From positions 6,496,001 to 6,560,000 of the forward strand of contig OY761556.1 in assembly GCA_963664705.1 (NCBI GenBank): 64,000 nucleotides of DNA, in the 5' to 3' direction. A program made the translations under genes and the position numbers. Positions 7,019 through 24,561 of the stretch are shown one piece after another. This stretch comes from Acidobacteriota bacterium. GTDB lineage: Bacteria > Acidobacteriota > UBA6911. The notes under the pieces were generated by a model. The model was not told the origin of the DNA. It did no database searches and worked only from the letters and a program-made list of their open reading frames with translations. The first letter of the stretch is position 1, and each line of letters begins with the position of its first letter.

Positions 7019-7039
7019 GGTCTTTACCGATAAATTGCA

Positions 7040-7062
7040 GGCGCTCAGCCAGGCTGAGCGCC
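7040..7062. other. Perfect 11-bp GC-rich inverted repeat between pilin and virB3 (mRNA hairpin)
   Basis: GGCGCTCAGCC-A-GGCTGAGCGCC. Confidence 0.65.
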
Positions 7063-7075
7063 ATGGCAGGAATTC

Positions 7076-7433: not shown

Positions 7434-7541
7434 CTATTGACTGTTTTCTTTCCGTTTCTTGAAAAACCAGAATCCGATTCCGCCGGCTGCTACAATCAGC
7501 GCAACAAAGAACCAGTTCATTGCTTGCTGAAACGTTTCCAT
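7434..7541 (-). CDS. 35-aa single-TM membrane peptide at the head of the conjugation operon
   Basis: METFQQAMNWFFVALIVAAGGIGFWFFKKRKENSQ, preceded by AGGAG-N7-ATG; TM helix plus basic tail. Confidence 0.6.
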   Translation of the reverse strand: METFQQAMNWFFVALIVAAGGIGFWFFKKRKENSQ

Positions 7542-7630: not shown

Positions 7631-7731
7631 TCACCCTGCAACTAGAAGAGTCACGAAACGCCAAAAAACTTATAAACTTTTTTCATTTTTTTGCTTTTTT
7701 TGCCAAAGGCTCCCCAAAATGGAGGGTTCAT

Positions 7732-8580
7732 ATGAGGGCCAGCGAAAAGGAATGCGCGTCGGCGGGAAACGATTTTGATGAACAAATCAGTGAGCTGATG
7801 GAAGAGCTAAAGCCTTTACTGGTCGAACATGGCGTGGATTTGGCAGCGTTGTCGGATGCAGGCAAAGAAGCTCTGCTCGAAATAGATAGAAATAATATAG
7901 GGAACTCTTCAGAACAGCTTCGCTCGTATTTTTTAGAACTGGTCTTATGGAACCTCTTTGCCAGTGGAAGCTCGCTTTGGATCAATTCCAGAACCACGGC
8001 TGGAAACATGGTCCCGTTGGAAATAATGACAATGGCATACGTGCTGTGGAAAGATGGCGTGTACCTGGCCGAGCATTACGGTGTGGATTCGGCAGTTGCA
8101 GCGGAAATCATGGCGCTGGTTACACACAAAGCAGCGGACAGGGTAATCAATTATGATGACGATCCTGAAAACGAACCTGTTCGAGACATCAAAAAATATG
8201 TTTTTACAGCATTCAGGTATGCCATTTACATGGTTGCCAAAAAACAGTCCTTACCTGCAAAGGATTTTCTTGAAATGAATAGTTTGAGCACGAATTGGGA
8301 GTCGGGGCTAAGCGGAGTAGAGAAACAGATATTCTGCGAAGAGCTGGTGAAAGCCATGCCTCCGAAGGCTCAAAAGATTTTCATGTCCTATCATGTTTCT
8401 CAATATAGTTGGAAAGAGACGGCTAAGGGATTGAGCCTGACAGTTGGTGCCGCCCAGAGAATTCTTAGCGATGCGATGATAAAGACATTTGGGATCCGGA
8501 TGCAGGAATTGCGAAGGATAGGCTTTCAACAGGTGACCGAAATTGAGAACTACCTGAAGAAAAAGCAGCGGATTCATTAA
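7732..8580 (+). CDS. Divergent ECF-like sigma-70 factor with N-terminal extension
   Basis: C-terminal region-4 HTH 'MPPKAQKIFMSYHVSQYSWKETAKGLSLTVGAAQRILSDA'; region-2-like 'DIKKYVFTAFR'; directly upstream of a zinc-binding anti-sigma. Confidence 0.7.
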   Translation: MRASEKECASAGNDFDEQISELMEELKPLLVEHGVDLAALSDAGKEALLEIDRNNIGNSSEQLRSYFLELVLWNLFASGSSLWINSRTTAGNMVPLEIMTMAYVLWKDGVYLAEHYGVDSAVAAEIMALVTHKAADRVINYDDDPENEPVRDIKKYVFTAFRYAIYMVAKKQSLPAKDFLEMNSLSTNWESGLSGVEKQIFCEELVKAMPPKAQKIFMSYHVSQYSWKETAKGLSLTVGAAQRILSDAMIKTFGIRMQELRRIGFQQVTEIENYLKKKQRIH

Positions 8581-8599
8581 TACAGAAGTAGAGATTTTC

Positions 8600-9355
8600 A
8601 TGACGAAGAGCGAAGAAGAACTGCGGGTTGAAATCCTGAAAAAAGCCTATATGACGGTCAATCCAAATCCGGAGCGCAAGGGTTGTCCCGAGCCCAAAGT
8701 GCTTCGAGATGTCGCCTATCACCGAAACATCGGCACACCGGAGCAGTTTGAAGCGATCATGGATCACCTCACAAAATGCTCTGCCTGCGTGCGTGATCAC
8801 ATGGCATTTGTTGAAGAGTACCAGGAAAAGAAAAAGCGAAATCAGCAAATGAAGCGATCTTTGCTGGGACTCGTGGCAGTACTGGTGATTTCGCTGGCAA
8901 TTTGGGCTGTCTGGCGCATTCGACCAAGACAAGAGATTGCCGTCAATCCTCCGAAACCACAGCATCAGGAATCCGGGAATCCAGTTTCACCCGATACTGG
9001 CAATCATAAAAACAATCCTCCCCAAATCGCCCAGCTGGAATCCGTCACGATTGAGATCCCCGCAAAACTGAGAGGCTCAGCCGAAACTGGGAATCCCATT
9101 GTCCTCAGCAGAGGGAAGCTGAATGCCGAATTCCGAATGCCAATCGGCAGCCCTGAAGGAAAATATAAGCTGCGGATTTCGGACATTTCCGGCAAAGCGC
9201 TTTGGACTGTGGAGAGAACTGCCTCAAAGGTGAATGGAATTACTGGCTTCAGATCGCCTTTGGATACTTCAAATTTACCATTTGGTGATTACAAACTCAG
9301 CATCCAAGAGCCTGGTTTTGCGGAATGGACGGATTATCCGCTCATAATAAAATAG
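8600..9355 (+). CDS. Zinc-binding (zf-HC2/ZAS) membrane anti-sigma factor with extracytoplasmic beta domain
   Basis: 'PNPERKGCP...HLTKCSAC' (HxxxCxxC), one TM helix, Pro-rich linker, C-terminal Ig-like domain ('LDTSNLPFGDYKLSI'). Confidence 0.75.
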   Translation: MTKSEEELRVEILKKAYMTVNPNPERKGCPEPKVLRDVAYHRNIGTPEQFEAIMDHLTKCSACVRDHMAFVEEYQEKKKRNQQMKRSLLGLVAVLVISLAIWAVWRIRPRQEIAVNPPKPQHQESGNPVSPDTGNHKNNPPQIAQLESVTIEIPAKLRGSAETGNPIVLSRGKLNAEFRMPIGSPEGKYKLRISDISGKALWTVERTASKVNGITGFRSPLDTSNLPFGDYKLSIQEPGFAEWTDYPLIIK

Positions 9356-9602
9356 ATTCCACTCACTGTTTTTAAGCCGCAGAATTTCACTTTAGAGTTT
9401 TACAGGCTATTCTGTAATTACGGGCTCCTGCCCAATTACCTGATAAGAATCCGCAATATCGAAGCTGCTGTAAATGGCCTTCGTGTCCATCGTTGTGATT
9501 CAAGGCTCAATAGCTGCGTTCAAATATCAACCTCTCAAGCTGCAGATTGTGAGGAACAAGGTTCCCATAGGCCTAGCTGTCTCAAATATTTGCACTTTTC
9601 GC

Positions 9603-9654
9603 TTGACAAACGTCTCATATATGTCGATTATCATCTCATGTATAGCGATAATCG
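9603..9654 (+). promoter_or_regulatory. Promoter and palindromic operator of the AAA/S8 operon
   Basis: TTGACA (9603) -17 nt- GATTAT; inverted repeat CGATTATC (9625-9632) / GATAATCG (9647-9654) overlapping the -10 and the start. Confidence 0.5.
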
Positions 9655-10798
9655 TTTCATGAATGAGTTATTTCGTATCGTAAAAGGCGCTCTTCGTCTC
9701 GATATTGAGAAAGTAAGGAATTACACCGCATTTTTGGCAGACAAGCTAGAAAAAGCAGGCGACGCATCTTCGGCAGGCAGACTGCGAAAGCTTCTCCAGG
9801 AAGAAGACCATCAACTCAGGCCAGCTGAAACGGCTTTCGCTGTTGCTCTCCCAGTCGATTCTGAGAGTCGATTCCCACTTCTTGAGCGAGTCGACCTCAA
9901 AGCTCTCCACGAACCCCCTGTGGTTTTGACGGAAGACCAGTGGGCTACTGCGTACGAGTTTCTCAGCATTGCCAAGAGTCACGCCCAGCTTGATGCCCAG
10001 GGCGTCACTGCCACTGTGAATCTACTGATGTATGGGCCTCCAGGATGCGGGAAGAGTCGCCTTGCACGTTTCTTTGCCCAAGAGCTTGGGCTCAGTCTCT
10101 ATATGGCCCGTCTGGATGGGCTGATTTCGTCATATCTTGGAAGCACAGCAAAAAACATTCGTGCCATATTCGATTTTGCTTCCAAAAATCCATGCGTTCT
10201 ATTTCTCGATGAGTTCGATGCTATTGCCAAGCTTCGTGCTGACTCTCAGGAACTTGGTGAACTTAAGCGTGTCGTTAACAGCTTCATACAGAACTTAGAT
10301 GCCCTCGGAGCACAATCAATAATTATTGCTGCCACAAATCATGAGTCACTTCTCGATTCTGCCGTGTGGCGGCGCTTTAGCTACCGCCTGCACCTTACCT
10401 ATCCCACGCCAGATCTGCGAGAGAAGATGTGGATTCAATTTCTCGCTCCACTCGAATTTCCACCACACGATATTGAACTTCTTGTGGATCTCTCAGAGGG
10501 TTTTTCGGGATCTGATATCCAGGAGATTTCCTTAAGGCTTCACCGGCGGCACATAACCACCAAAACTCATCCAGAGCTTAAAGACGCATTTCAGGTTCTA
10601 AAAAACATTGCCATCGGAGAAGGGGAGGACCGCAGGTTCGTCTCTCGTCTCAAAGATATGGATCCCCGTATAGTCGCTTCTGCTTTACGCGAGCGTAACC
10701 CCAAGCTCTATAGCCATTCATCGCTTGCCCATTTGTTTGGCGTTTCCAAAGCAACTGCCCATCGATGGGCGTTGAAAGGAGTGACTGACCATGCCTGA
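9638..10798 (+). CDS. AAA+ ATPase (IetA-like) with C-terminal HTH
   Basis: Walker A GPPGCGKS, Walker B LFLDEFD, 'SSYLGST', 'GELKRVVN', second region of homology 'LDSAVWRRF'. Start uncertain (ATG 9638, possibly leaderless, or ATG 9659). Confidence 0.88.
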   Translation: MYSDNRFMNELFRIVKGALRLDIEKVRNYTAFLADKLEKAGDASSAGRLRKLLQEEDHQLRPAETAFAVALPVDSESRFPLLERVDLKALHEPPVVLTEDQWATAYEFLSIAKSHAQLDAQGVTATVNLLMYGPPGCGKSRLARFFAQELGLSLYMARLDGLISSYLGSTAKNIRAIFDFASKNPCVLFLDEFDAIAKLRADSQELGELKRVVNSFIQNLDALGAQSIIIAATNHESLLDSAVWRRFSYRLHLTYPTPDLREKMWIQFLAPLEFPPHDIELLVDLSEGFSGSDIQEISLRLHRRHITTKTHPELKDAFQVLKNIAIGEGEDRRFVSRLKDMDPRIVASALRERNPKLYSHSSLAHLFGVSKATAHRWALKGVTDHA

Positions 10799-13142
10799 CA
10801 ATTCCGAACGAAAGGATATCTTTCGATCCCGTGATCGACTTCCTATCAAGTTGATTTTGCCTAAACAGGGGCGGGAACGAAAAGTTCCTGGGGGCGGGGG
10901 GCCTGCCAAGCCCTTTCGTTCGGTGGACACTGCGTACAGAAGACGACTCCATAGCCAGGTTACGGCCATTCGGGATGCTATCCTGCCGCAGGCTTCCAAA
11001 ATAGGCAGCATCCCGATCCGCGTTAGGCTTCTCTCAAAAGCCGTGGCCAAGAGCCACCGTCCTGAACACCTTTTTTCGCGCGACTCTTGCCCCATAATCG
11101 GCTCTGGCCATCTTGGCGAGCTATTTCTCAAGGCCTCACCAGATGGACTGGAAAAGCTTGCTTCCACCATTCACCGCAATCAAACCGATCAAACAATAAA
11201 GGAACTCTCCAGCATCGAATCGATAGAGCCCATTACTCCAGTTTTTCGGCGTCACGGGGTTCAATCCATCGACATCCTAAAAAAGAGCCCACGCAGCGAA
11301 AAGGGATTTTTCACCAGAGTCAGATTGTTTGATTTCGGCCCTGATGATGACCAAGCAAAGCTCGTTGATGACTTCCACGCCGCATGTCGACGGCAACACC
11401 TTTCCATTAGCCAGGAAGGGTACGAACCGAGCAGCCAAATATATCAGGTGGAATGCCGCTCGGAAGCGGATGTTGAACAGCTTTCCGGTATTATCGGTAT
11501 CCGCTCGATAACTCAGATGCCACTTATTCGCATGATTCGCCCACGCGTTTTGAATGCACGCCCTCTGCCTACAAGGCTTCCCATCGCCGGCGATGTGGAC
11601 GGAGATTTTCCCGTTGTTGTTGTTGTCGACAGTGGTGTTACGGATAAAAATTCCGAGCTTCAAACATGGATTGTCGGCCGCAAATCCGACGTTTCTCCGC
11701 AATATCGGAACACGGATCACGGTACCTTCGTCGCTGGTCTTATCTGTTGGGGCTCGCAGCTCAATCCTGACCTGGCCGGAATTGATTCCAATCCCTGCGG
11801 CGTTTTTGACCTTCAGGTAATTCCAAACGGCGACCCAAGCCGGGGCGATACTGACGACCTAATTGAAAGCGAATTTCTCCAGTCCCTTGAGTCTGCACTA
11901 AAACAATATGCCAACAAATATCGTGTTTGGAACCTCTCTTTAGGCTCCGATCAAGTTTGCTCGCTAGACGAATTTTCCCCTCTCGCCGAGCAACTTGATC
12001 ATCTTCAGGAAAAGTATCGAGTCTCCTTTGTCATAAGCGCCGGAAATTACGATACGCTTCCGCTCTTGGATTATCCACGAACGCTTCAGCAGCTTGACGT
12101 CGGTCGAATTACTTCTCCAGCCGACAGCGTCCTTGGAATTACAGTAGGCTCAGTCTCCCACATTGACTATAAAGCTCACGGACCCCGCCAGCATCATCCT
12201 TCTCCTTTTTCGCGGCATGGGGCAGGCCCAAATCACATAATTAAGCCTGACCTGATCCATTACGGAGGAACCTGCACTGTTGATGCCTCTCATACTTCCG
12301 GAATCCGCTCCGTTAACGCGAAAAGTTCTGCTGAGGATCTCGGTACTAGCTTTGCAGCTCCACTAATTTCCCGCACGCTTGCTCAGATCTATCATCAGGT
12401 CACTCCGACTCCATCACCCGTACTTGCCCGCGCACTTCTTACGCATCACGCCCGCGACCCCCGAACTGGAGACCGCGTGCCCGATGGAGACGAGAACTTT
12501 TTCGGCTTTGGCCTTCCGGCTACAGTTCCATACTGCCTTGAGTGCAGTCCGCACTCCTCTACGCTAATCTTTGAAGATACCTTGAGGCCTGGCTACTACC
12601 TAGAATGGGATGATTTCCCGTATCCCGCCGCTCTCCATCGTGAAGGACGCTACTACGGCCAGGTTTGGATGACTGTAGCCCTTGCTCCATCACGGGGGGG
12701 CCGTTGGGGGACTGAGTATTGTGAGACGCATATCGATGCGCACTTCGGCGTCTACGCTTCCAAGACGTCTCGACAGACGGGCGATGTGTCCGTACAATTC
12801 AACGGCCTGGTTCCCCCAGAGCATAAAAATCCAGGACTACTTTATGAATCATATCAGGTTGAGAAGTTGCGAAAGTGGGCACCAGTGCGTACATATTTTG
12901 GTGATCTAGGCGAACGTGGAAAACGCGGACTTCGCTGGCGTCTCAAGGTTCAGCTTCTCACACGTCACGGAATTGAAGATCAGGAAGCTTTTAAGCCACA
13001 GCCGTTTTCTCTCATTCTGACGATTGCAGACCCGCTGAAAAAGGCACCGGTCTATGATCAGATGGCGCAAACCGTTCACAACCGGTTCCAAGCTCAAAAC
13101 ATCGTAGTGCGTGCTGCATCTCGGATACGTACGCGTACTTAG
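10791..13142 (+). CDS. S8 subtilisin-like serine protease (IetS/Y4bN-like)
   Basis: Intact triad VVVVDSG / DHGTFVAG / GTSFAAP and oxyanion ISAGN; no signal peptide; overlaps the ATPase stop. Confidence 0.9.
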   Translation: MPDNSERKDIFRSRDRLPIKLILPKQGRERKVPGGGGPAKPFRSVDTAYRRRLHSQVTAIRDAILPQASKIGSIPIRVRLLSKAVAKSHRPEHLFSRDSCPIIGSGHLGELFLKASPDGLEKLASTIHRNQTDQTIKELSSIESIEPITPVFRRHGVQSIDILKKSPRSEKGFFTRVRLFDFGPDDDQAKLVDDFHAACRRQHLSISQEGYEPSSQIYQVECRSEADVEQLSGIIGIRSITQMPLIRMIRPRVLNARPLPTRLPIAGDVDGDFPVVVVVDSGVTDKNSELQTWIVGRKSDVSPQYRNTDHGTFVAGLICWGSQLNPDLAGIDSNPCGVFDLQVIPNGDPSRGDTDDLIESEFLQSLESALKQYANKYRVWNLSLGSDQVCSLDEFSPLAEQLDHLQEKYRVSFVISAGNYDTLPLLDYPRTLQQLDVGRITSPADSVLGITVGSVSHIDYKAHGPRQHHPSPFSRHGAGPNHIIKPDLIHYGGTCTVDASHTSGIRSVNAKSSAEDLGTSFAAPLISRTLAQIYHQVTPTPSPVLARALLTHHARDPRTGDRVPDGDENFFGFGLPATVPYCLECSPHSSTLIFEDTLRPGYYLEWDDFPYPAALHREGRYYGQVWMTVALAPSRGGRWGTEYCETHIDAHFGVYASKTSRQTGDVSVQFNGLVPPEHKNPGLLYESYQVEKLRKWAPVRTYFGDLGERGKRGLRWRLKVQLLTRHGIEDQEAFKPQPFSLILTIADPLKKAPVYDQMAQTVHNRFQAQNIVVRAASRIRTRT

Positions 13143-13274
13143 TAAGCAGCGAAATCATGAACCCTCGCTTCACATAATTGGTTTTTGTTTGATTAGAGTG
13201 TTGAGGCAACCAACAGCAGCCAAGTTCGAAGTTTTATACTTCTAAGCAAGCCCAGCAAAAGCCCCCGAGCAGTC

Positions 13275-14174
13275 TCATATGGAGACCATGATTGATTTCA
13301 ACTCACTTTCGGGGAATATGAGAGCGAACACCTGATAGGTGCTGTCAAAGGCCTCTAGGTATAAGGTCTCTGAGATCTCAGTGATGGGCGATTCAATTCG
13401 ACAGCGCTTCGTCAGCTTTTTATTGAATTGAGGAAGCCTGTTTCCTAGCGGATCTCGGCTATAGAACGCATCTGGCCATTTAACTATTCCGAAACGATCG
13501 AGGAATCTTTGGGATGCGACCACGCGGCGCAGTTCAAATCGATTTCCACGGCTAACTTCATGCACAGGCTCATCGAAGATTAGCACCGCACAGCAGCGGT
13601 GACTGGTCGAAACGAAGCGTCGCATGGCCGCATATACTGAAGATCCGTACCTTTTCGCAAGATCCATTGGAGTCTTAATCGCAAACGGGAGCACTTTTGC
13701 ATCTTTCTCAAACCGGTCAATCTGGAAGAGCACTTCAGATGCGAATACTCCCGCTTGTCGCTCAAACTCCTGTTTCACCTCTGGATCAAGTTCGGCCTCA
13801 CCATCCTCAACAAGCGCATATGCATCTCTTTGCCAGGGTAAGAATCCGTGCCCTGTTTCGTGGAGGGATACAAATCGTCGTTTTTGTTCTTTAACGCTTA
13901 GATCAAGGTAAATTATTTTATCCTGAGAATCGAATAATCCGAGAACTTTGTCCAATGCTTTTTTAATGGTTCCGGTAACAGCGCCGTAAGCCCTCTTCAG
14001 GAATCCTTCATCAAGAGAGGCCCCTGCAACAGAAAGTTCTGCCGCCGCGATGATTTTCTCTACGGGCGTTGGAAACTGGTCGCATGCACCCGCTTGCCTC
14101 AGCAAGCGGGCGGCATGTTTCCGAATCTCCGTATGCATTTCAGGGGGGACAGAACAGTCATCGGCTTTACTCAT
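13275..14174 (-). CDS. ImmA/IrrE-family zinc metallopeptidase (CapP-like)
   Basis: 'RRFVSLHETGH' (HExxH), 'FERQAGVFASEVLF', HTH linker 'LAKRYGSSVYAAMRRFV', C-terminal GAF-like region. Start reassigned to ATG 14174, coupled to the XRE stop. Confidence 0.88.
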   Translation of the reverse strand: MSKADDCSVPPEMHTEIRKHAARLLRQAGACDQFPTPVEKIIAAAELSVAGASLDEGFLKRAYGAVTGTIKKALDKVLGLFDSQDKIIYLDLSVKEQKRRFVSLHETGHGFLPWQRDAYALVEDGEAELDPEVKQEFERQAGVFASEVLFQIDRFEKDAKVLPFAIKTPMDLAKRYGSSVYAAMRRFVSTSHRCCAVLIFDEPVHEVSRGNRFELRRVVASQRFLDRFGIVKWPDAFYSRDPLGNRLPQFNKKLTKRCRIESPITEISETLYLEAFDSTYQVFALIFPESELKSIMVSI

Positions 14175-14568
14175 CTTTTCCTTTCCTTTGCTTAGAACGT
14201 AAGAAGGCAAGGTATTTCAGCAGTTCCTCTTCTTCTTCTCGGCTAAGAGGGCCGAGAGATGCCGGAACTACTGATCCCTTCAGCTGCAGCGAAGCTGCCC
14301 GCAATTTTGGCGATGCCTTTATGTATCCTGCCTTTTGCATCAGTACCTCATAGGGAACCTTATAGAATTCCGCTAACGCATGCAGGATGTGAGGCGACGG
14401 CTTGCTGATCTTATCGTTCTCCAATTGGCTTAGATATGCATTCGAGACCTCAGTGCCTTCCTCTACTTCCCGCAGTGTATGTTTTCGAGTTTGGCGTATG
14501 TTTCGAAGAAACTCACCGAGGCTTTGTCCAGCGCCTTCCGGCGATGCCAATTCATTTTTGCCGCTCAT
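14167..14568 (-). CDS. XRE-family HTH repressor (CapH/ImmR-like)
   Basis: 'LGEFLRNIRQTRKHTLREVEEGTEVSNAYLSQLENDKISKPS'; C-terminal oligomerisation helix 'LSREEEEELLKYLAFLRS'. Confidence 0.9.
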   Translation of the reverse strand: MSGKNELASPEGAGQSLGEFLRNIRQTRKHTLREVEEGTEVSNAYLSQLENDKISKPSPHILHALAEFYKVPYEVLMQKAGYIKASPKLRAASLQLKGSVVPASLGPLSREEEEELLKYLAFLRSKQRKGKDE

Positions 14569-14614
14569 TGCTTTCTCCTTTTTGGTTCTCCTTAGGGATT
14601 TATTTTAATAGCCT

Positions 14615-14677
14615 TTGCTAAAGTTAGCAAGCATTGCGTGCTGGTTGCTTGACATACTACGCAACGCGTAGTATATT
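14615..14677. promoter_or_regulatory. Divergent control region with consensus sigma70 promoter and two palindromic operators
   Basis: TTGACA (14649-14654) -17 nt- TATATT (14672-14677); ATACTACGC-AAC-GCGTAGTAT (14654-14674) fills the spacer; TTGCTAA-AG-TTAGCAA at 14615-14630. Confidence 0.75.
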
Positions 14678-14739
14678 TAGATTTGTGAAATATGGAAATG
14701 TTTATTTCCAAAACTCTTAACCTTTTTAAGGAGACAATT

Positions 14740-15732: not shown

Positions 15733-17129
15733 ACCTGAGAATATCCGAATCGCATTGGCGAGACGTACAACGAGCTACCATGTCCAGCTTCTCAAAAGCT
15801 CTTGGGCGGCCTGCCGAAACCGGCTGCATTTTGCTTTGTGGACACAACGCACACTCAGTCCGTCCGAGTCTTTTGGTTGCCGATGTTCTAATTCCCAGTG
15901 ACCAGGACCTTAAAGATCAGGAGTATGGTGGTTTAACGTTTTCTAGTAGTTACCTTCGGCGTGCCCTCCTTACTGTACGGCAACGCGGACTAAAGGGGTT
16001 TTTGACCCTGCATACTCACCCACTAGCAGATAGATACGTCGGCTTTTCCAACTACGACAATGAAAATGATCCTCAGTTAATGCAAAACTTATATGAGATG
16101 CAACAAGATGGATTATTTGGAAGCATTGTCATAGGCAAGAACTCTGCTGCCGCCAGGATCTGGGATTGTTCAAGGTTCCTGCCTTTAAGGAATTTGGTAA
16201 TCGTGGGCGAACAGCTATGTTTTATCCCGTTGAACGGAGACTCCTCAACGATAGCAGTCCCGGAAGCATCTGAAATCTTTGATCGCAGTTTGGCGCTAAC
16301 CGGGCAAGGAGCGCTTTCTATTCTATCTCAGCTCCGCATTGCAGTAATCGGGGCTAGTGGCACAGGATCTCTCATCGTGGAACTTCTGGCTCGCGCAGGG
16401 GCTGGAGAGATCGTCCTTTTCGATTTCGATACAGCAGATCACACTAATCTAAATCGCGTGCTCTACCTGCGAACGAGAGACACTGATGTAAAGAGGATTA
16501 AAGCTGAACGTCTCGCTGAAGCCATCAAAGAAAGCGGCCTCCCGTCACGTATCACCATAGTCAAAGATGGTGATATTCGGAAACCCGAGGTAGCCAGCGA
16601 ACTGCGTGGTTGTGATCTCCTAATCGGGTGCGTAGACCGCGATTGGCCGCGTCTCATTCTCTCCGAGGTTTCGTATCAATATCTATTGCCCTATCTGGAT
16701 CTCGGAACCGAAATTGGAATTTCTGACGATTGCATTCAAAGTATCGACTCCAGAACATCATATGTCTGTCCCGGACGTCCATGTTTGCTTTGCAGTAAGG
16801 TTGTCTCCCAAGAACGTCTGCGTCTCGAAACGCTTGAAAGTGATGAACAAGACCGCGTTATAAAAATGGGTTATTCTGCGGATATTCGCCTTAAAGCACC
16901 TGCTGTTATGGAACTCAACATGCGCTCTGCTTCCTTAGCCATGTTCCTTCTCCGCAATCTCCTTCAGCCCTTCCTGGCTGCTCCTGTACCACACACAATT
17001 AAGGAAGCGCTTACAAACTACTCAACTCGCCAGCTTTTTTACTCCGTCATGCCCAAATGCCCGTGTTGTGATTCAGAGCGCCTCGGCGCGGGTGGTTCAT
17101 CGCGTCTAAGCACTAGACCGCAGGCTTAA
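15729..17129 (+). CDS. JAB/JAMM peptidase - ThiF/E1 fusion
   Basis: ATGA overlap with the upstream stop. JAMM motif 'ETG...HTHP...FSNYD'; E1 motifs 'IGASGTGS', 'DFD...NLNR', 'GCVD', zinc pairs 'CLLC' and 'CPCC'. Confidence 0.88.
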   Translation: MNLRISESHWRDVQRATMSSFSKALGRPAETGCILLCGHNAHSVRPSLLVADVLIPSDQDLKDQEYGGLTFSSSYLRRALLTVRQRGLKGFLTLHTHPLADRYVGFSNYDNENDPQLMQNLYEMQQDGLFGSIVIGKNSAAARIWDCSRFLPLRNLVIVGEQLCFIPLNGDSSTIAVPEASEIFDRSLALTGQGALSILSQLRIAVIGASGTGSLIVELLARAGAGEIVLFDFDTADHTNLNRVLYLRTRDTDVKRIKAERLAEAIKESGLPSRITIVKDGDIRKPEVASELRGCDLLIGCVDRDWPRLILSEVSYQYLLPYLDLGTEIGISDDCIQSIDSRTSYVCPGRPCLLCSKVVSQERLRLETLESDEQDRVIKMGYSADIRLKAPAVMELNMRSASLAMFLLRNLLQPFLAAPVPHTIKEALTNYSTRQLFYSVMPKCPCCDSERLGAGGSSRLSTRPQA

Positions 17130-17266
17130 CAGACCCGAATTATTGAAAGCAGATCGCGGGTTAAAGTCATCGGAAGCCATGGATTCCATAATCCGGGAAT
17201 TTCCTTCCATCGAAAGATCCGGATTCAAGAAGGTGTTGTTGAACGACTGTCAATGCGCGGGTGAAC

Positions 17267-18334
17267 TCATCTCCTATATTCCGCCGTCAGCTGACGCTGG
17301 ATACGGCTATCCTGGTCACGAATCTGCAAATATGCCAGGGAAGATCCTCCACATGAATCGATATCAATCACACCAAAACTTTTTTCATAAAAGAGATTTG
17401 CAGCTCTGTGCTGATTCTTCTCTGGCGAGAAGAAAGCTCTTAAATGATAGAAGAAATCGACATGGTGGGTCAGGCCGCTGCTTGTGACATCATATAGAGA
17501 ATACGGCAATTGCGGATCATCTAATCTGGATATCTCCGCAAGGTGGCGATCGCCGCTTAGGATAACGGTGAGCCTTGGTTTTGCATCTGTGAGCAATTGC
17601 AGGATTCGTTTTCGTGATTTCGGATAATTGCCCCAATGCTCATAGGGATGCTCGCAGGAAAGCAATTGAATGCTGGATCCAAGCAGAACAATTTCATCTC
17701 TACTATCTCTCAGTTCTTTTTCAAGCCATTGCCATTGCTTCTCACCGAGGAGATCACTCTCCGGTCCCGGTACATCTGCGTTGTAGCGGAGATCCAGAAG
17801 GATGACTTTGATTCGCCCCGCAGGCTTGCCATATGTATAGGAAGCATAAACGCCGTCCTGCTTCCGGCGAGGGCTGTCTTGCGGTTCATCTATGAAATCA
17901 AGAAAAAGCTGTTGGCTCTCAGCCTTCTTCGAGTAATGCTTGTTACCATTTTTCATCCCATAATCATTGTCATCCCAGGTGCCAATGATGGGGCACTGCT
18001 TTCTCATCTCTGCGTATTCGGGATTCTGTTTCTGTTTTTCGTACTGGCTTCGCAGATATCCCACATCTTCAGTAGCGGCATCGACGCTGTCTCCGAGCCA
18101 GATCCAGAGGTCGGGCTTGCAGTTGACAATAGCTCGCCACATATAGTTTGGCTTCCATTGTTTGTTGCAGGAACCGAATGCAATTCGAAAAACGCCAGGC
18201 CCAGCCGGGTTGCGATCAATATGATCACCCATTGGCGCAACTGTTCGCGTGGAATAAAGCTGAGCAACCGGGATGGCAATCACAATGAGAGCCATCAGCA
18301 GCCCCAGGAATTTAAAAGCATGTCTAAGCTTCAT
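17267..18334 (-). CDS. PhoD-family phosphatase/phosphodiesterase with altered active-site motifs
   Basis: N-terminal signal/TM; 'IAFGSCN', 'WLGD', 'WDDND', 'LLDLRY', 'LGEKQWQWL', 'LSGDRH', 'DVTSSGL'. Confidence 0.85.
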   Translation of the reverse strand: MKLRHAFKFLGLLMALIVIAIPVAQLYSTRTVAPMGDHIDRNPAGPGVFRIAFGSCNKQWKPNYMWRAIVNCKPDLWIWLGDSVDAATEDVGYLRSQYEKQKQNPEYAEMRKQCPIIGTWDDNDYGMKNGNKHYSKKAESQQLFLDFIDEPQDSPRRKQDGVYASYTYGKPAGRIKVILLDLRYNADVPGPESDLLGEKQWQWLEKELRDSRDEIVLLGSSIQLLSCEHPYEHWGNYPKSRKRILQLLTDAKPRLTVILSGDRHLAEISRLDDPQLPYSLYDVTSSGLTHHVDFFYHLRAFFSPEKNQHRAANLFYEKSFGVIDIDSCGGSSLAYLQIRDQDSRIQRQLTAEYRR

Positions 18335-20991
18335 TGTAATTTCTCTCCTGTGTCAGCAGGCCGGGATTCGATAAAAAGAGAATCGGAACTATCGCCAATC
18401 ATCAGCATTCCCGCCCAGTGCTTTGGGAGTGCATTGTCCTTGTATTCTCCAATAAAATCCAACTTCGCCTGGCGCAGAGCAGATCCCTTGTCCATTCCAT
18501 GCGCCAAATATGAGTAGAAGCGAGTCATCAGCTCCGCCGTGGAAAGATCCTCTGTGGGCCAGATGCTTGCTACCACAGATCGCGCGCCGGCCATCAGAAA
18601 GGATTTAACCAAATTGGAGACTCCCTCCTGGTCCAATACTCTTCCCATTGCGGTATCGCATGCGGATAGAACGACCAAATCGGCTTTTAGTCGGAGCCGG
18701 CTGATTTCCCACGCCTGAAAGATGCCGTCATCGCGTTCATCAATCTGAGGTCCAAATAGAAGTGCTGACCTGGCTGGAAATCTCGGATCTGAAATGCCAT
18801 GAACTGCAAAATGGAGGATGTCGAAATTTTCCAGGCTAAGCGACTTAATTGCTGATTCGCTGACAGATTCTCCGAGCAAGGTAAAGCTATCAGTCGCGCC
18901 CTTCATCTCTTTAGCGATCGTTGATATTTCAGTAAGCGAACCCTCCAGTCTGGACGGTCGCGGCAGATTATTAAAGTAGATGAGTCCGGATTCGTCTGAA
19001 GCAGGGTATCGAACATCACCCACACCCAAAAACTTTCGTTTACCCGTTCGCATTACCGGGGTTTTCCTGAGAAGGTATGTAATTGTTGCCGATGGGCTGT
19101 AATCAATCATGTGCAGTTCCAGAAAAGGCCTCCCGGAGGGCACCGGAATTGCCTCGAAGGGAAGTAAGTGCAGCAATCCATCCGGCACAATTGTAATTCG
19201 TGGCTTATGATCGATATCTGGGAGCGGACGGATCAACAGGTCATAGAGTCTTTGGGCGAATTGGGTACTTTTTCGGTTTTGCAGAATATCATTGCGATAG
19301 TTTGAAACAGCCTCTTCAATCACATGCCTGGGAGCAAGCGTGATGCCCTGAACACCGGATCGACTGATTACCAAGCAGGTAGAGGAAGGCTCTCTCAATA
19401 CATATTCAAGAATGACTTCTGCTGAATATAGGCCTTTTTGAATTTCTGCTAACGGGATTGGAGAAAATGTCAGCGCCTCAATATTGTGCCGACCAGCTTC
19501 TCGGCTGGATCCAAGATGCTGTTCCAAATCGAAAATTTCGCTTTGAATTCGATGTTGTTCCAGCGGATCTTTCTTTTTCCAGAGCTCGGCTTGGAGGCGA
19601 GTGAGTGACCGTTCGTATTTCTCGAAAGGATTTTGATCCTTTTCTCCCACTGCCGGAGTGGGATCTAACCGTCGTCCTCTAAGAGAATCTGAAATGCTTC
19701 TGCCACGAGCCTGTTCCAGAATTAGGAAAGCTTTTGCCGGATCATTGAGTCGATGGAGCGAAAACGAAAAGTAGTCAGAGTAAAGGCTGCTCATTCTGGC
19801 AACGAGGAAAGCACGAGCATGGGCACTCGTAAATTTCCCCAGCAGACCGTTTAGGGTTTGCAGCGCTTCATTGTAGAGGAGATCGGCCTCAGCGATCCGG
19901 CCTTGGTCTGCCCGAATTGCTGCCCTGTTCCGAAGATGGAGAATGGTTTCTGTTGGATCTCCAGATTTCAAGCTCGAATGGAAACCCACTTCAGCACAAT
20001 CAAGCCCTTTCCACAATTCGTCTCGTGTGAGATGAATTTGTGAAAGGTCCAGAGATATTTTTGAAATTAGCCGATGATAACCAATTTCCAAGGAAATATT
20101 GAGGGCTTGTTTCAGCAAATCTGCGGCCTCCACAAGTCGGCCATTCTCGAAATGCACATGCCCCTGTAGATATAGCGCTTGGGCATTCTGAGCGGGAGCT
20201 CCGGTGAGTCGCGCCTGAGCTATGCAATGCTCAACCAAAGGCGTTGCATCCTGAAGTCGATTGGATGCGATGAGAATTATTGCCTTCTCAAAAAAGGCTG
20301 GGGAATAGGAGAACGCTTGTTCGCGTTCTATTAGGTCAATCGCGCGATCAAGATGGCCAAGGGCATCTTGATTCTTTCCTGCACTGCTATAAAGACAGGC
20401 GATGGCAGTCCTGAATCGCAGTTCATTCATCCCATCGCCGATCTCTGCTGCGTGCCAAAGGACTGCAGAGACTTCATCTGATCCAATTGGATCTCCATCC
20501 AACACCTTCAACAGGCCGAGCTCTCCCCGTGCGCGGTCCTCCAAATGCTTATCCCCAGCCTTTTGAGAGAGCATGAGGACTTCCTGCCAATCCCGCCGGC
20601 GCTGATAGGCATTAAAAACGAAGGCGCTTAGGGCATCAGTGTCAGACTCAACATCGGCTTTTAAAAACAGCGCTCTGAGACGAACCGTTGGATTGTTTTT
20701 TGCCGGCAAACGCCCAATCTCTCTTCTTAGAGCATCACAAATTTGCTGGAGAGAATATTCCTTAATAGAAGCTCGAATGCTTCCATGCCTGGCCATTGCT
20801 GCGCTTTCAATGTCACCTGCCACAAGAAGCTGCTTCTCTGCTTCCTGGTAAAGCGGCAGTGCTTTGCCCCATTGGTATCTCTCTGCATGCAGATCCGCCT
20901 GCCGGAGCATTTCATTGCCAGACTCCAAAGACCAAGCCGTCCGTGAACAGCAGATGGTTGCAACTAGTAGGAACCAATAGATTGCTTTCAT
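18331..20991 (-). CDS. Exported TPR-CHAT (caspase-like, HetF-family) protease
   Basis: Signal-peptide-like N-terminus, TPR helices, CHAT motifs 'EQARGR', 'IVPDGLLHLLPFEAI', catalytic 'HFAVHG' and 'VLSACDT', 'AGARSVVASIW', 'PKHWAG'. Confidence 0.92.
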   Translation of the reverse strand: MKAIYWFLLVATICCSRTAWSLESGNEMLRQADLHAERYQWGKALPLYQEAEKQLLVAGDIESAAMARHGSIRASIKEYSLQQICDALRREIGRLPAKNNPTVRLRALFLKADVESDTDALSAFVFNAYQRRRDWQEVLMLSQKAGDKHLEDRARGELGLLKVLDGDPIGSDEVSAVLWHAAEIGDGMNELRFRTAIACLYSSAGKNQDALGHLDRAIDLIEREQAFSYSPAFFEKAIILIASNRLQDATPLVEHCIAQARLTGAPAQNAQALYLQGHVHFENGRLVEAADLLKQALNISLEIGYHRLISKISLDLSQIHLTRDELWKGLDCAEVGFHSSLKSGDPTETILHLRNRAAIRADQGRIAEADLLYNEALQTLNGLLGKFTSAHARAFLVARMSSLYSDYFSFSLHRLNDPAKAFLILEQARGRSISDSLRGRRLDPTPAVGEKDQNPFEKYERSLTRLQAELWKKKDPLEQHRIQSEIFDLEQHLGSSREAGRHNIEALTFSPIPLAEIQKGLYSAEVILEYVLREPSSTCLVISRSGVQGITLAPRHVIEEAVSNYRNDILQNRKSTQFAQRLYDLLIRPLPDIDHKPRITIVPDGLLHLLPFEAIPVPSGRPFLELHMIDYSPSATITYLLRKTPVMRTGKRKFLGVGDVRYPASDESGLIYFNNLPRPSRLEGSLTEISTIAKEMKGATDSFTLLGESVSESAIKSLSLENFDILHFAVHGISDPRFPARSALLFGPQIDERDDGIFQAWEISRLRLKADLVVLSACDTAMGRVLDQEGVSNLVKSFLMAGARSVVASIWPTEDLSTAELMTRFYSYLAHGMDKGSALRQAKLDFIGEYKDNALPKHWAGMLMIGDSSDSLFIESRPADTGEKLQ

Positions 20992-21000
20992 ATCTGGCCG

Positions 21001-23976
21001 CTAAAACTGATATCTCAGAGCGAGCTGAAGCTGAAATGGCGCTCCGGCATAAAGACCGTTTGTGTTGAGAGATCCGTTTGGCAGGTATTTTGTCCGGAAG
21101 GTTGGCAGCGGATTCTGCCCTGGTCCCCACAAAGAGCCGATAGCACCGGAAGGTCCTTGCTCATTCGGATTAGCGGTGAATAAAAGGTTCTTGGCATTCC
21201 AAAGATTGAACAACTCAGCGCTCACATGCAATTTGCTAGTTTCTCCAATACTGAACATTTTTAGGACCCGAAGATCATGCTGGAAATGGTTTGGCTGGCG
21301 AAAAGAATTCCTGAGAAGTGGAATCCCATTGATGATCGGACGATCGGTAAGCTGGCCATCTCCATTGCTGTCCATGCCGGTAAAAGCGCTGAAGGGTGTC
21401 CCTGTGCGCCATTCTACGGTCGAGCTCGTCGTCAATCCCCAGGGAAGCTCCCATAAACTATTGAGAATCCAGCGATGGCGAATATCGTTCCGACTCCAGC
21501 GGTACTCGGATCCAAGATCAAATGCGTTTTCGTAGTTGATTCCGAGATAGTTGCGTTCGTTTGAGTCGTCATCTTTGTTATAGGAAAGGACATAATTTGT
21601 CCGAAATTGCATCCTGGAGAACCTGCGTTCAAGCCCCACTATGAGAGCATCATAATTTGAGCGAGCGTTGCTTTCCTGTTGACGAAGAATGCCGAACGCC
21701 GGGTTAGGTCTGGCGCTGAGATCGAAGTGCGGCCGCAGTACTGACGGGATTGAATTGTCAGGTTCAATCGTTGGCTGCGGCAGATTTACATCTCGGATTC
21801 TCTCCAGGTGGACAGTGTGGCTGTGAACAAAAGAAATATTCCCAACAAAGCTATTGGTTAGCCGTTGTTCAATGGAAATGCCGTATTGGAAGGCTCTCGG
21901 GTTCCGGAAGTCGGATGCGAAAAATGAAACGTCGGGCCTGACGTTAAGGCCCAGAGATGTGAAATACGAAGCATCTTGCGCATTCGCGGTTTCAGGAACG
22001 AACGGGAAAACGAATTCCGGCCGAGCTTTTTGGATCGCGCCTATTTGTGGAGCGACCAGATCGAATGTGACTCCGACCTCAGGATTGCCGTTGGAGTTGA
22101 ACGCCTGGTTGACCAGCAAATAGGGGGTCCGCGCATTAAAAAGGCCGGTTCCGAGACGGATAACCGTTCGGCTACCGGATCCGGGGCTCCAGGAAAGCCC
22201 CAGACGAGGCTGCCACATATTTAAGTCGCTGGGCACTTCGGAAGTGTTAGGCAGAAGTTGATTGGGCTTTGAAGGTTGAGGCATGAGCGCGGCTTCATAT
22301 CGAAGTCCGGCATAAAGGCTCAAATTGGAACTCAGCCGTATTGAGTCCTGCAGGTAACCGGCGAAATCCCAGAATCCGGCTTGAAATCGTCCATTGCCGA
22401 AATAGATTCTCATGAAATCGGCAGGATAGGGTTGCCCGGTTGCTGGATTGATTTGTCTTTCTGACGTGCGAATGTAGTTGTTAAGACTCGTGAATAGGTA
22501 GAGCCCCCGCCAGTTTCCGCGAAAGGTTTGAAAAACGGAGGTGCGGCTTACATCTAAGCCCAACTTCACATGATGTCTGCCTTTGATAAATGAAACGTTA
22601 TCCGCAAACTGCCAGCGTCCATCGTGCTGAATCGCGGGAAGCGTTGCTAATCCTCCAAATGCGCAGCAACCGACAATTCGAATTTCCGGCCCGGCGATAC
22701 TCCTGAAATCATTGCCCTCCAGATTGTTGGTTCGCGGCCGGGATTCATAGGAGTAATGAGCCCGGAATTCATTGAAAATGCCCGAACCGAAACTGCTGTT
22801 TAACGACATAACGACTGCATGTGTTGAGTCGCGTTCTGTTCCATTGTTTTCAAGAGAACTGTCCGTGACGCCAAAATTGGTAGCGTTTGCAGCCTTATTT
22901 GTGCTGAAACTGTACCGCATGCTGAGTTCGTTGCGTGATGACAGTCGATGATCGATCTTGGCCATATAGGTGGCCACATTATTGGTAGTTTTGAACGTGC
23001 CCTGCTTTCCCATGATCTCAGGGGGACCACTAGCCAGGTTGAAGCGGACTGTTAGCGGTTGCTGTTCGCGCTGGCCGTCGAAAACTGTGAAGAAAAATGT
23101 TTTGTCTTTAACCAATGGCCCGCCAAGGCTGGCACCAAATTGTTGCCGCGTTGGGGCGGTATCAAAACCAAAGATGTTTTTGGGAGAGAATTCACGGTGG
23201 CGCAGGTAATAGAAAGCGCTTCCGTGAAAATTGACCGATCCGGATTTGGTGACGACGTTTATCACTCCACCGGCACTTCTACCGAATTCAGCCGAGAAGT
23301 TGGAATGAACGATGCGAAATTCCTGAATGGCTTCCTGACTTAGGATATAGGCGAAATTTGAGCGCTCGCCGCCGCGTTGTCCACCAAAGAAAGGCTGATT
23401 AAAATCAGCTCCATCCACATTGACGGCACTGTTGATGCCTCTTGCGCCGGATAAACTTAGCTGCCCGCGCTCATGTTCCTGGTAGAGGCCTGGAGACAAT
23501 AGTGCGAGATCCAGGAATCGGCGGCCGTTGAGCGGAAACGCTCCGATCTCAGATTGGTCAATAACGCTGCTGATCTCAAATTGTGAGGGATTGGTGATTG
23601 ACGCTTTATCTTGAACTTCAATGAATTGCGAAATGGTCGCAGGCTGCATTGTCACTTCAATAGAGCGCATCTGGCCTATGTTAACGATAATGCCGGTGAT
23701 CCTAACCTCTGAGAAACTCGTCCGATGAGCTGTGATCTCATATTTGCCCACCGGGAGTTGAGTAATCGTGAAAAATCCTTCGGGGGAAGTGCGGTCAGTG
23801 CGCGTAATACCCATCTCAATATGTCTGGCCATGATGAGTGTATCGGGAAGAACACCTCCCGTTACATCACGGACAATGCCCTGAATCTCTCCGGAGCTGA
23901 TTTGGGAATGAGCAATATAGGGGAAGCAAAACCAGAAGATCACCGCGATAATCCTGCATAGCTTCATGACAGTCAT
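21001..23976 (-). CDS. TonB-dependent receptor, Oar-like, with N-terminal carboxypeptidase-regulatory-like domain
   Basis: Signal peptide, 'GEIQGIVRDVTGGVLP', 'PLNGRRFLDLALLSPG', 'FSAEFGRSAGGVINVVTKSG', terminal 'QLALRYQF'. Confidence 0.92.
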   Translation of the reverse strand: MTVMKLCRIIAVIFWFCFPYIAHSQISSGEIQGIVRDVTGGVLPDTLIMARHIEMGITRTDRTSPEGFFTITQLPVGKYEITAHRTSFSEVRITGIIVNIGQMRSIEVTMQPATISQFIEVQDKASITNPSQFEISSVIDQSEIGAFPLNGRRFLDLALLSPGLYQEHERGQLSLSGARGINSAVNVDGADFNQPFFGGQRGGERSNFAYILSQEAIQEFRIVHSNFSAEFGRSAGGVINVVTKSGSVNFHGSAFYYLRHREFSPKNIFGFDTAPTRQQFGASLGGPLVKDKTFFFTVFDGQREQQPLTVRFNLASGPPEIMGKQGTFKTTNNVATYMAKIDHRLSSRNELSMRYSFSTNKAANATNFGVTDSSLENNGTERDSTHAVVMSLNSSFGSGIFNEFRAHYSYESRPRTNNLEGNDFRSIAGPEIRIVGCCAFGGLATLPAIQHDGRWQFADNVSFIKGRHHVKLGLDVSRTSVFQTFRGNWRGLYLFTSLNNYIRTSERQINPATGQPYPADFMRIYFGNGRFQAGFWDFAGYLQDSIRLSSNLSLYAGLRYEAALMPQPSKPNQLLPNTSEVPSDLNMWQPRLGLSWSPGSGSRTVIRLGTGLFNARTPYLLVNQAFNSNGNPEVGVTFDLVAPQIGAIQKARPEFVFPFVPETANAQDASYFTSLGLNVRPDVSFFASDFRNPRAFQYGISIEQRLTNSFVGNISFVHSHTVHLERIRDVNLPQPTIEPDNSIPSVLRPHFDLSARPNPAFGILRQQESNARSNYDALIVGLERRFSRMQFRTNYVLSYNKDDDSNERNYLGINYENAFDLGSEYRWSRNDIRHRWILNSLWELPWGLTTSSTVEWRTGTPFSAFTGMDSNGDGQLTDRPIINGIPLLRNSFRQPNHFQHDLRVLKMFSIGETSKLHVSAELFNLWNAKNLLFTANPNEQGPSGAIGSLWGPGQNPLPTFRTKYLPNGSLNTNGLYAGAPFQLQLALRYQF

Positions 23977-24561
23977 TTCTCCTTTGAATGGTCATGCTGG
24001 AAACGGGATTACGAAATTCCTAAGCGGAGACTTTCAGAAGATTAGTTCGTCGAAAGCATCGTGAACGCGGGAAAATGCTGCGGACACATCAAACGCTATC
24101 CTCTTAGAATAAAAAACCAGCCGGTGCCTACCGCGATTAATTTCCATATTTTGAAAAATGTCGCAAACGCATAATGCCAAATTCTGTGATGCTAAATCAA
24201 ATTTGCTTTATTGGAACAGATTCCCCACATAGCAATTTTCTATCCACATCTCATCAATGGAAGCTAAATGAACATATTGCAGAAGTTAGGATGAATCGCA
24301 GAAATCGGCGAGCGGTCAGAAGTGAACGGAAATGAGGAATAATTTCCCTGAAAAGTGATCATTTGAGCACATTTTTTCCCGCACAATTTGGCAAAAATGA
24401 GTGGCGGTTTTGAGCAAACGAAACTCCTAATAGCAAAAAAATGCATTTTTCTAAAAATAATTTGTAAGTTTTTTGGCATTTCGTGACTCTTCGTGTTGAA
24501 AGAAAAGGAAGAAACAGGAAAGGCTAGGTGCAGTTCAGAAAAACAGAAGGTGAAATCGGCG

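Follow-up and report, generated by a model that had tools for sequence, protein, structure and literature searches.

The window examined here is a stretch of 64,000 nucleotides (contig positions 6496001-6560000) from the genome of an Acidobacteriota bacterium, which is assembled as a single contig of 6.89 Mb. It contains genes for a putative extracytoplasmic function (ECF) sigma factor (7732-8580, + strand) and a membrane anti-sigma factor (8600-9355, + strand) and, converging on these, an operon (17267-23976, - strand) that includes the gene for a tetratricopeptide repeat (TPR)-CHAT caspase-like protease (18331-20991, - strand). Both sets of genes lie on an integrative and conjugative element (ICE). 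A first-pass annotation had proposed that they form a cascade across the envelope, in which the protease clips the anti-sigma factor and the released sigma factor switches on transfer or cargo genes, and all of the open reading frames (ORFs) that it listed were recovered at its positions. Our analysis gives about an even chance to the reading that the CHAT protein clips the anti-sigma factor and that the freed sigma factor turns on excision and transfer through a 28-bp motif.

The GC content is ~49% over bases 1-26,600 of the window and 55-60% beyond. A 51-bp attachment (att) core at 26609-26659 overlaps a tRNA-Met gene (26611-26687, - strand), with its left core match at genome position 6401473. 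Because the core recurs at 6401473, 6362632 and 6316669, the sigma/CHAT region was taken to lie at the right end of an island of ~121 kb. The island encodes a tyrosine integrase, two excisionase-like proteins, VirB4 and its partners, VirB11, a MobF relaxase (185 bits; cut-off 100) and a TraD-type coupling protein. Since an integrase with att repeats, a relaxase, a coupling protein and a VirB4 type IV secretion system were all found, the island at tRNA-Met is, by its gene content, an ICE. The four copies of the core in all are a mark of tandem islands. A readable excision joint was not seen in the assembled contigs of the source sample, and none of the reads in the raw-read run fell on the stretch.

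The sigma factor is a protein of 282 amino acids with an N-terminal extension of ~80 residues. On its own it gave weak matches (Sigma70_r4_2, E 4e-5; TIGR02937, E 8e-6), and the top Foldseek rows for its predicted structure were ECF sigma factors (best E 2.5e-3, none reaching E 0.001). A family profile of 67 sequences aligned to the ECF sigma factor SigL over sigma2 and sigma4 (E 1.5e-7). The protein is a single chain with sigma2 and sigma4 and without sigma3, as in the ECF group 4.

The anti-sigma gene starts 19 bp after the sigma gene and encodes 251 amino acids. These comprise a zinc-binding-type N-terminal domain (C29 and the motif H56-x3-C60-x2-C63), one hydrophobic helix at 87-105, a disordered stalk and an immunoglobulin (Ig)-like beta-sandwich. 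In the structural model (pLDDT 89), helices with the zinc-type motif are followed by a long helix that spans the membrane segment, the stalk and the sandwich at 147-250. Among 129 homologues with a mean column identity of 22%, H56, C60 and C63 are present in 100% and C29 in 99%. Pfam zf-HC2 gave no match on the protein itself, although its Atlas neighbour carries that domain. Fold searches returned generic Ig-like matches only (best Z 8.1, root-mean-square deviation 3.5, 99 aligned residues), and the anti-sigma profile matched nothing significantly among the PDB sequences, DdvA of Myxococcus xanthus included. A tblastn search of the plasmid database gave no match, and a pattern search of viral contigs gave 10 matches, none of them confirmed. 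The family comprises 1,294 clusters at 50% identity. Coordinates, SigL profile match, membrane helix and beta-sandwich all agree with the annotated pair of an ECF-like sigma factor and a membrane HxxxCxxC anti-sigma factor with an extracytoplasmic domain (7732-9355), and judging from these features the anti-sigma protein very probably holds the adjacent sigma factor at the membrane. Short soluble anti-sigma proteins of 76-90 amino acids, which lack the membrane helix and the outer domain, were seen at four loci (L083:2204-2467, L085:3369-3632, L119:16374-16646 and L131:10829-11059).

The TPR-CHAT protein (Pfam CHAT, E 2e-59) carries the catalytic residues H731 (18799-18801, H731-G732) and C778 (18658-18660, A777-C778), and both are invariant in 36/36 members of its clade. 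The best PDB relative of the CHAT domain is DdvA (E 4e-5), followed by Csx29 (E 1e-3). The N-terminus is basic and hydrophobic in the window protein and in clade members, and a hydrophobic segment was found in 25/25 full-length distant members and in 8 close ones. Export of the protein is predicted from this sequence, in which a signal peptide, a lipoprotein signal and an anchor are not told apart. The nearest solved relatives of the TPR region are LGN/Pins and the Rap phosphatases, whose repeats bind peptides.

The CHAT gene is preceded, after a gap of 9 bp, by a gene for an Oar-type TonB-dependent receptor (21001-23976, - strand; Pfam CarboxypepD_reg and OMP_b-brl_4) and overlaps by 4 bp a gene for a PhoD-like phosphatase (17267-18334, - strand). 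With these junctions and an intact dyad, the coupled receptor/TPR-CHAT/PhoD operon converging on the sigma and anti-sigma genes stands as annotated. The same holds for the ~8-kb defence block between the two halves, a variable cargo at 9590-17129 with IetA/IetS, a CapP/CapH-like pair, and E2-E and JAB-ThiF genes. Relatives hold other cargo at this hot spot. The CapP/CapH-like pair with the E2-E and JAB-ThiF genes (window 13275-17129) recurs directly behind the anti-sigma gene in genome G103 (L021:1979-5831).

The 28-bp motif was first noticed when the sigma-virB2 intervals of relatives were aligned, in which a pair of boxes and the gene for a 35-amino-acid peptide are conserved. The first copy in the window (7645-7672, - strand) consists of TAAGTT, 17 nucleotides and CTCTT. 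It lies 60 nucleotides behind the start of the sigma gene, on the other strand, and 103 nucleotides before the operon of the 35-amino-acid ORF and virB2. The second copy, with 1 mismatch (24465-24492, + strand), lies 69 nucleotides before an operon of a helix-turn-helix (HTH) gene, xis and int, and the third, with 2 mismatches (genome position 6477364), lies 60 nucleotides before the operon of virB11, the relaxase and the coupling protein VirD4. In the whole 6.9-Mb genome these are the only three copies, the next best match having 8 mismatches (blastn between copies, E 7.6e-6 and 0.002). All three lie inside the ICE in the sense orientation, 60-103 nucleotides before an operon, and the same three were recovered in an assembly made independently from the source sample. 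The whole-genome search found no copy facing the sigma gene, the cargo or the receptor-CHAT operon. Two boxes that are 17 nucleotides apart have the geometry of ECF promoters.

The operon behind the first copy encodes the mating-pair apparatus. Its virB2-virB9 part occupies 996-7390 (- strand; Pfam CagX, VirB8, TrbL, T4SS and CagE_TrbE_VirB), and it runs on to virB10, left of the window. The genes virB2 and virB3 were named by position; virB2 (7076-7390) has a fitting size and no VirB2 Pfam match, and the pilin of a distant counterpart element matches TrbC/VirB2. The first gene of the operon in this lineage encodes the 35-amino-acid membrane peptide (7434-7541, - strand), a single helix with a basic tail, which precedes virB2 in all close elements with enough sequence and was not found by pattern search in the distant clades. 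The annotated divergence of sigma from virB2 is therefore right as to the opposite strands, while the name virB2 comes from position only and the small ORF stands in between. In some relatives an extra ORF of ~100-118 amino acids without a Pfam family lies between the motif and the peptide gene. Behind the second copy are an HTH_17 gene (24562-24804, + strand), an excisionase-like gene (24879-25193, + strand) and the tyrosine integrase gene (25190-26473, + strand).

In the proposal that the sigma factor switches on transfer or cargo genes, the shared motif at three operons favours transfer, together with excision, and the cargo part is not supported, as no copy faces it. The 23977-24560 fragment, which had been put forward as a promoter fragment, contains a motif that points to xis-int. 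It is probable, from the placement of its copies, that the motif is the promoter of this sigma factor and that xis-int, virB2-virB10 and virB11-relaxase-VirD4 all have the sigma factor as their master activator. Because the element brings its own sigma factor, a membrane anti-sigma factor and a protease predicted to be exported, and one promoter-like sequence precedes all three excision and transfer operons, an extracytoplasmic signal likely times the exit of the element.

The motif was then followed in relatives. In 40 close loci, two pairs of which are duplicates, TAAGTT-n16-18-CTCTT was sought with one mismatch allowed, and 20 of the 21 intergenic matches lie at the heads of virB2, virB11, xis or primase operons or just behind the sigma start. 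A ribosome-binding site and a start codon follow the CTCTT box after 20-35 nucleotides. A pattern search of five whole genomes gave 15 matches compared with 13 for the reversed control, so the position of the motif, and not its count, is the evidence; 13/15 matches are at element operon heads. For the six matches in G112 and G103 whose context had not been seen beforehand, four precede xis-int, an integrase gene or virB11. The distant clade has the same -35 box and a changed -10 box, GTAAGGTT..GCGTTC, with 10 matches compared with 0 for the reversed pattern in five genomes. Three of these matches are sites from which the pattern was designed. The other seven comprise one match at the position of the virB2 promoter in G347, two in front of a shared backbone gene, which in G256 heads a run of DUF932, ParB and serine recombinase genes, one between genes at 42 kb from the anti-sigma gene, and three inside unrelated ORFs. 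The -10 box thus changes along with the sigma clade. When the close-clade matrix was run on 36 non-redundant distant intervals, which are kin, the strand leading away from sigma scored better in 26/36 and reached p<0.05 against shuffles in 7/36. The distant intervals read as holding a drifted version of the close-clade signal.

Other searches were less informative. Within the 20-kb distant loci, a repeat search found nothing at <=5 mismatches in 28, and these flanks do not reach across the 17-26 kb that separate the copies here and are hence uninformative. Among 14 longer stretches, a clear repeat was found in the close G112 stretch only. De novo Gibbs sampling led to a blurred pair of boxes that scored equally on the two strands. 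Apart from the two sites in G292 from which it was designed, the third-clade pattern had no match there or in four further genomes, and sigma-70 promoter scans gave 2 and 1 sites, the level of shuffled sequence. A genome-wide matrix scan was set aside as circular because the sites of the window itself had been part of it. Integrase islands on further contigs of G112 (L214:6160) and G103 (L218:8795) bear the motif and showed no virB in the DNA retrieved around them; they are candidate satellites activated in trans.

A cascade that is real and has another output is improbable. In such a case the sigma factor would serve cargo or defence genes, as DdvS does, or a downstream regulator, and the motif would be the operator of another regulator of the element or would act on the opposite strand. 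In favour of this, the motif has a partial palindrome (TAAG..CTTA in relatives), copies 1 and 2 are flanked on their far sides by the operon of sigma and by that of receptor and CHAT, defence cargo often lies between the halves, and no virB was found within 10 kb upstream in 29/55 distant loci. Against this, no copy is near cargo, and neither copy 3 nor the site in L071 has a matching divergent operon. The translation start signals behind CTCTT, the fit of the boxes and 17-nucleotide spacer to ECF promoters, and the shift of the -10 box with the sigma clade also speak for a promoter of this sigma factor. The one other candidate regulator that was checked, a LexA-like protein, is encoded in 2/9 close stretches of fetched DNA, and the motif is retained in elements in whose fetched DNA its gene was not found. 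This LexA-like gene (L003:17703-18371) ends the virB2-virB10 operon only in the present element and in G112:C28.

To determine whether the two halves belong together, we used an even set of 401 Acidobacteriota genomes in which the CHAT clade was delimited by scores of >770 bits (next 433). A strong anti-sigma match is present in 13/401 genomes and a clade CHAT in 10/401, and nine genomes have both, within 10 kb of each other. The tenth CHAT-clade genome has a CHAT-S41 arrangement on a contig of 9 kb, in an assembly of 280 contigs. Six of the ten CHATs were in the search profile and four others, beside an anti-sigma gene, were not; two candidates were scored per genome, and genome G158 counted only in the denominator. 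CHAT proteins in general (E 1e-60) are found in 135/401 genomes.

A scan of species genomes, which overlaps the 401-genome set and yields kin rather than independent loci, found 316 anti-sigma loci, and the best 80 of the 316 were kept (the distant loci). Where the flank was long enough, the sigma gene is directly upstream in 69/74, a clade CHAT is within 10 kb downstream in 29/56, and virB is divergent upstream, always on the opposite strand, in 26/55. A leaderless S41 peptidase is encoded in 24/56 distant loci. CHAT converges on the anti-sigma gene in 35/38 cases overall, with gaps from 8 bp to 8.8 kb. In the metagenome locus L060 a single gene separates the anti-sigma and PhoD genes, so that related elements with nearly adjacent halves, as had been anticipated, do exist. 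In most distant elements an S41 peptidase without a leader (Tricorn C1/PDZ/S41) is coupled behind CHAT (L174:10717-11949; many of L113-L238), and the neighbouring-clade S41 was not found in the source genome (best 59 bits, compared with >480).

From these counts, the sigma factor, anti-sigma factor and TPR-CHAT clade travel together in Acidobacteriota far beyond chance, as the expected co-occurrence of the three required. The expected link with VirB holds in that virB is often divergent upstream and fails in that this is as frequent where CHAT and S41 are lacking (11/25 with CHAT/S41 and 10/21 without, within 10-kb flanks). The possibility that an ICE backbone and unrelated cargo came together here by chance draws on the cargo hot spot between the halves and on how common CHAT is generally; it is largely refuted by the co-occurrence counts, since the linkage is clade-specific and the motif is tripled, and can hardly be credited. 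A mirror-tree comparison was not used as support, because the Pearson values for anti-sigma/CHAT (0.89-0.90) and anti-sigma/VirB4 (0.65-0.75) were reversed in Spearman values over 13 common loci (0.65 and 0.80).

In the class of the source genome (137 genomes), this VirB4 lineage has 9 loci in 7 genomes. The sigma gene is head-to-head in 7/9, the contigs of the other two ending too early, and the anti-sigma gene follows it in 6/7. G112:C28 has the layout of the window with different cargo. The exception is a second ICE of the source genome (L001/L002, G000:C1:5637484-5663076). It shares the backbone, carries a sigma gene (35% identical) followed by radC, and has no anti-sigma, CHAT or -35 box. 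By eye only the -10 half of the motif is present, with no informative repeat, and this ICE may have arisen by loss of the control module. Its gene before the relaxase (L002:11041-11507) contains four copies of a 26-nucleotide unit at 147-nucleotide spacing, a repeated protein domain.

The distribution of the receptor and PhoD is different. PhoD is found in close relatives only and in 0/80 distant loci, and a related receptor is found in 2/80, in neither case directly 5' of CHAT; neither can be counted among the core parts, as the first-pass annotation had done. Its analogy to cell-surface signalling through a TonB receptor, anti-sigma factor and ECF sigma factor does not extend to the FecA/FecR/FecI type, since the Pfam scan found no STN signalling domain in the receptor and no FecR match in the anti-sigma protein. 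From their occurrence, the receptor and PhoD are lineage add-ons. The full form of the earlier proposal, in which the receptor relays or imports a ligand, PhoD makes or processes it, and all four proteins form an obligatory surface-signalling chain, is very improbable. It would account for the coupling of receptor, CHAT and PhoD in the window and its close relatives, for the receptor gene directly upstream of sigma in two genomes of another family, and for a motif that leads to a receptor in G372; the distant loci count against it, as do the truncated receptor in G112:C28 and the missing domains.

The contact between the CHAT protein and its presumed substrate was also modelled. The predicted complex of CHAT (22-872) with the anti-sigma outer part (128-251) scored 0.48, while the best of 3 controls scored 0.00; the runs agreed in at least 88% of contacts, with a partner pLDDT of at least 77. 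In calibration, the mark was reached by 116/157 solved and 2/215 mismatched pairs, and at scores of <=0.60 there are only 18 solved pairs and both mismatches. The prediction thus favours the pairing over the controls and falls in the very range that holds both mismatched passes, so it lends weak support to it. Within the outer domain, Arg158 (codon 9071-9073, + strand) is placed by the model in the loop that connects strands one and two and is present in 99% of the 129 homologues, which makes it a candidate cleavage site. An Arg pocket of the separase type has been described, with D2151 and its counterpart in Csx29 located at +41 and +43 relative to the catalytic Cys (PMC9729208). The nearest invariant acid in the present CHAT is D815 (+37), which could be no more than a tentative counterpart.

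We propose the following mechanism. At rest, the anti-sigma factor would keep the sigma factor at the membrane and the ICE would stay integrated. On induction, a ligand on the TPR region would activate CHAT, which would cut off the Ig-like outer domain of the anti-sigma factor, most simply after Arg158. Intramembrane and then cytoplasmic proteolysis would follow, with the release completed by an RseP-type protease of the host and, in the majority of lineages, by the leaderless S41 peptidase encoded alongside. The freed sigma factor would then fire the excision, mating-pair and DNA-processing operons together, and the receptor and PhoD would act as dispensable input parts confined to certain lineages. 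The proteolytic step, from ligand-activated CHAT through to the RseP-type or S41 proteases, is somewhat favoured by the sequence evidence. A peptide or contact cue is a guess by analogy; the peptide type was guessed because the TPR region resembles the peptide-binding Rap/LGN repeats, the sole hint at the signal. More tentatively, there may be a phylum-wide ICE family that senses an extracytoplasmic cue (a peptide or recipient contact), in which exported CHAT cuts the anti-sigma factor at the conserved Arg and the sigma factor fires all mobility operons and mobilizes satellite islands with the same promoter.

Several observations weigh against this mechanism. There is no clade CHAT within 10 kb in 27/56 distant loci, and the counts in the phylum sample rely on six profile-member CHATs and two candidates per genome. 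The sigma factor, anti-sigma factor, motif and virB are present in G103 (complete to 100%, in 10 contigs) and in G090 (97%), neither of which has a clade CHAT (best E 7e-26 and 8e-38). Arg158 is kept in 40/40 proteins with CHAT/S41 nearby and in 25/27 without, and may therefore be structural. The soluble stubs offer no outer domain to cut, the Arg pocket lacks an assured equivalent, and virB is as frequent without CHAT/S41 as with them. For the promoter, the reversed control, the partial palindrome and the weak detection of distant sites by the close-clade matrix have to be considered. In distant loci the divergent gene is often LysR, HTH or a second sigma factor, and at one locus of G372 a receptor gene lies behind the motif; because the divergent genes differ, the output is not always conjugation and varies by lineage. 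In DdvA, a CHAT site that faces the juxtamembrane linker and truncated forms whose instability was traced to RseP speak for the mechanism; its own CHAT activity is described as not demonstrated, dyad mutants were like the wild type at rest, and no autoproteolysis occurred on infection (PMC11506125).

Much of this would be explained if the sigma and anti-sigma factors control excision and transfer through the motif and CHAT is not the site-1 protease, but binds and shields the anti-sigma factor or has another substrate, the sigma factor being freed by host proteases or other signals. G103 and G090, the indifference of Arg158 to CHAT, the stubs and the DdvA mutants are all in line with such an arrangement. 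The invariance of H731 and C778, the anti-sigma gene within 10 kb in 9/10 clade genomes, the converging layout kept across families, and the joint absence from the second ICE are not, and we consider it rather unlikely. G103 and G090 do carry, 24-35 kb away, a different cassette with a zinc-type transmembrane anti-sigma protein, a ~680-amino-acid peptidase-like protein and a CHAT protein (L059:815-8750, L023:13375-19998), located beside radC where the cargo ends on its distal side.

Further features lie outside the module. The 121-kb element also has apparent cobalamin-synthesis and TonB-receptor genes, as read from the sequence, and defence genes. At 63014-63112 of the window ARAGORN called a tRNA-SeC, one of three in the genome, which adjoins an IS110 transposase gene (61382-62491).

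Acidobacteriota are abundant in soil and sediment, and to our knowledge their gene transfer has barely been studied. If the proposed mechanism is true, trans-envelope proteolytic signalling would be a new way to time transfer, distinct from a repressor, SOS, a quorum-sensing activator or a stochastic sigma loop. Arg158 as the candidate site, the catalytic C778 and the 28-bp candidate promoter for a reporter provide named handles. No paper joining CHAT, anti-sigma factors and conjugative elements was found, in a search whose coverage of subscription papers was thin and for which homologue lists in supplements could bear on novelty. The statement that no characterized example controls conjugation therefore stands for the combination only, of which DdvA/DdvS, Tn916 Sig7-8 and mycobacterial SigM each display a part. 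What is new here is the combination of an ICE-borne ECF sigma factor, an anti-sigma factor and a separate TPR-CHAT with a transfer-operon motif, which was found in no searched paper.

Among known systems, Csx29/Csx30/RpoE of the type III-E Craspase also has a TPR-CHAT that cuts a sigma-binding protein, but it is cytoplasmic and activated by Cas7-11 and RNA (PMC9729208), whereas the CHAT here has a hydrophobic leader. The 46 window ORFs that were scanned contained no cas family, and the Csx29 model scored 29 against a 300-bit cut-off. ECF54 genes of Actinobacteria are found beside CHAT/TPR and carboxypeptidase-regulatory-like domains; the supplement describes them with subtilase neighbours, without an anti-sigma factor, in another phylum and with the putative promoter GTATCAG/CTCC (PMC7826278 supplement). 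In Mycobacterium smegmatis, SigM is an ECF sigma factor released from a membrane anti-sigma factor in conjugation with ESX-4 (PMC7826278 supplement; PMC13491425). That system is chromosomal, acts on the recipient side and uses type VII secretion, and the available part of the source reports no CHAT (PMC7826278).

SetCD of the SXT/R391 ICEs resembles the present system in that one element-specific motif precedes the excision and transfer operons and is also used by unrelated islands (PMC4344509), as with the two motif-bearing integrase islands described above. SetCD is a class II activator that binds near the -35 box and not a sigma factor, and is described there without an anti-sigma factor or protease (PMC4344509). 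Tn916 Sig7-8, likewise a sigma factor carried by an ICE, switches on xis/int and is needed for excision and transfer, but it has two subunits and a stochastic positive loop (bioRxiv 10.64898/2026.10.01.756105), whereas here there is a one-chain ECF factor with no motif facing its own gene, a membrane anti-sigma factor, a protease and three separate candidate promoters. The terms "anti-sigma" and "ECF" are absent from the main text of the Sig7-8 paper (bioRxiv 10.64898/2026.10.01.756105).

The closest likeness is to DdvS/DdvA of M. xanthus, which consists of an ECF sigma factor and a zinc-type anti-sigma factor with one transmembrane helix and an extracytoplasmic TPR-CHAT, which has a His-Cys dyad and is the proposed site-1 protease (PMC11506125). 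The -35 box of DdvS promoters contains GTAA (PMC6061681), as does the -35 box of the motif. In contrast to DdvA, which joins the anti-sigma factor and periplasmic TPR-CHAT in one chain (PMC11506125), the two are encoded here by separate converging genes 9 kb apart, and the anti-sigma factor ends in an Ig-like domain. DdvS promoters have the form GTAA-n16-CGT (PMC6061681), while here the -10 box is CTCTT at 17 nucleotides; the DdvS output is CBASS/CRISPR in the account available, whereas the predicted output here is excision and conjugation, from a system on an ICE. A DdvA-like chromosomal fusion of 1136 amino acids (L005:8653-12743; zinc-type motif, transmembrane helix, TPR and CHAT) was seen in the source genome behind an ECF sigma gene, with the His motif H-S and not H-G. 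The question of whether periplasmic TPR-CHATs cut anti-sigma factors may have a simpler handle in the present module, in which the enzyme and substrate are separate small proteins. By analogy, the ICE module works like a split DdvA/DdvS and is not a member of that system, because its genes are separate and the outer domain of its anti-sigma factor, its -10 box and its targets are different.

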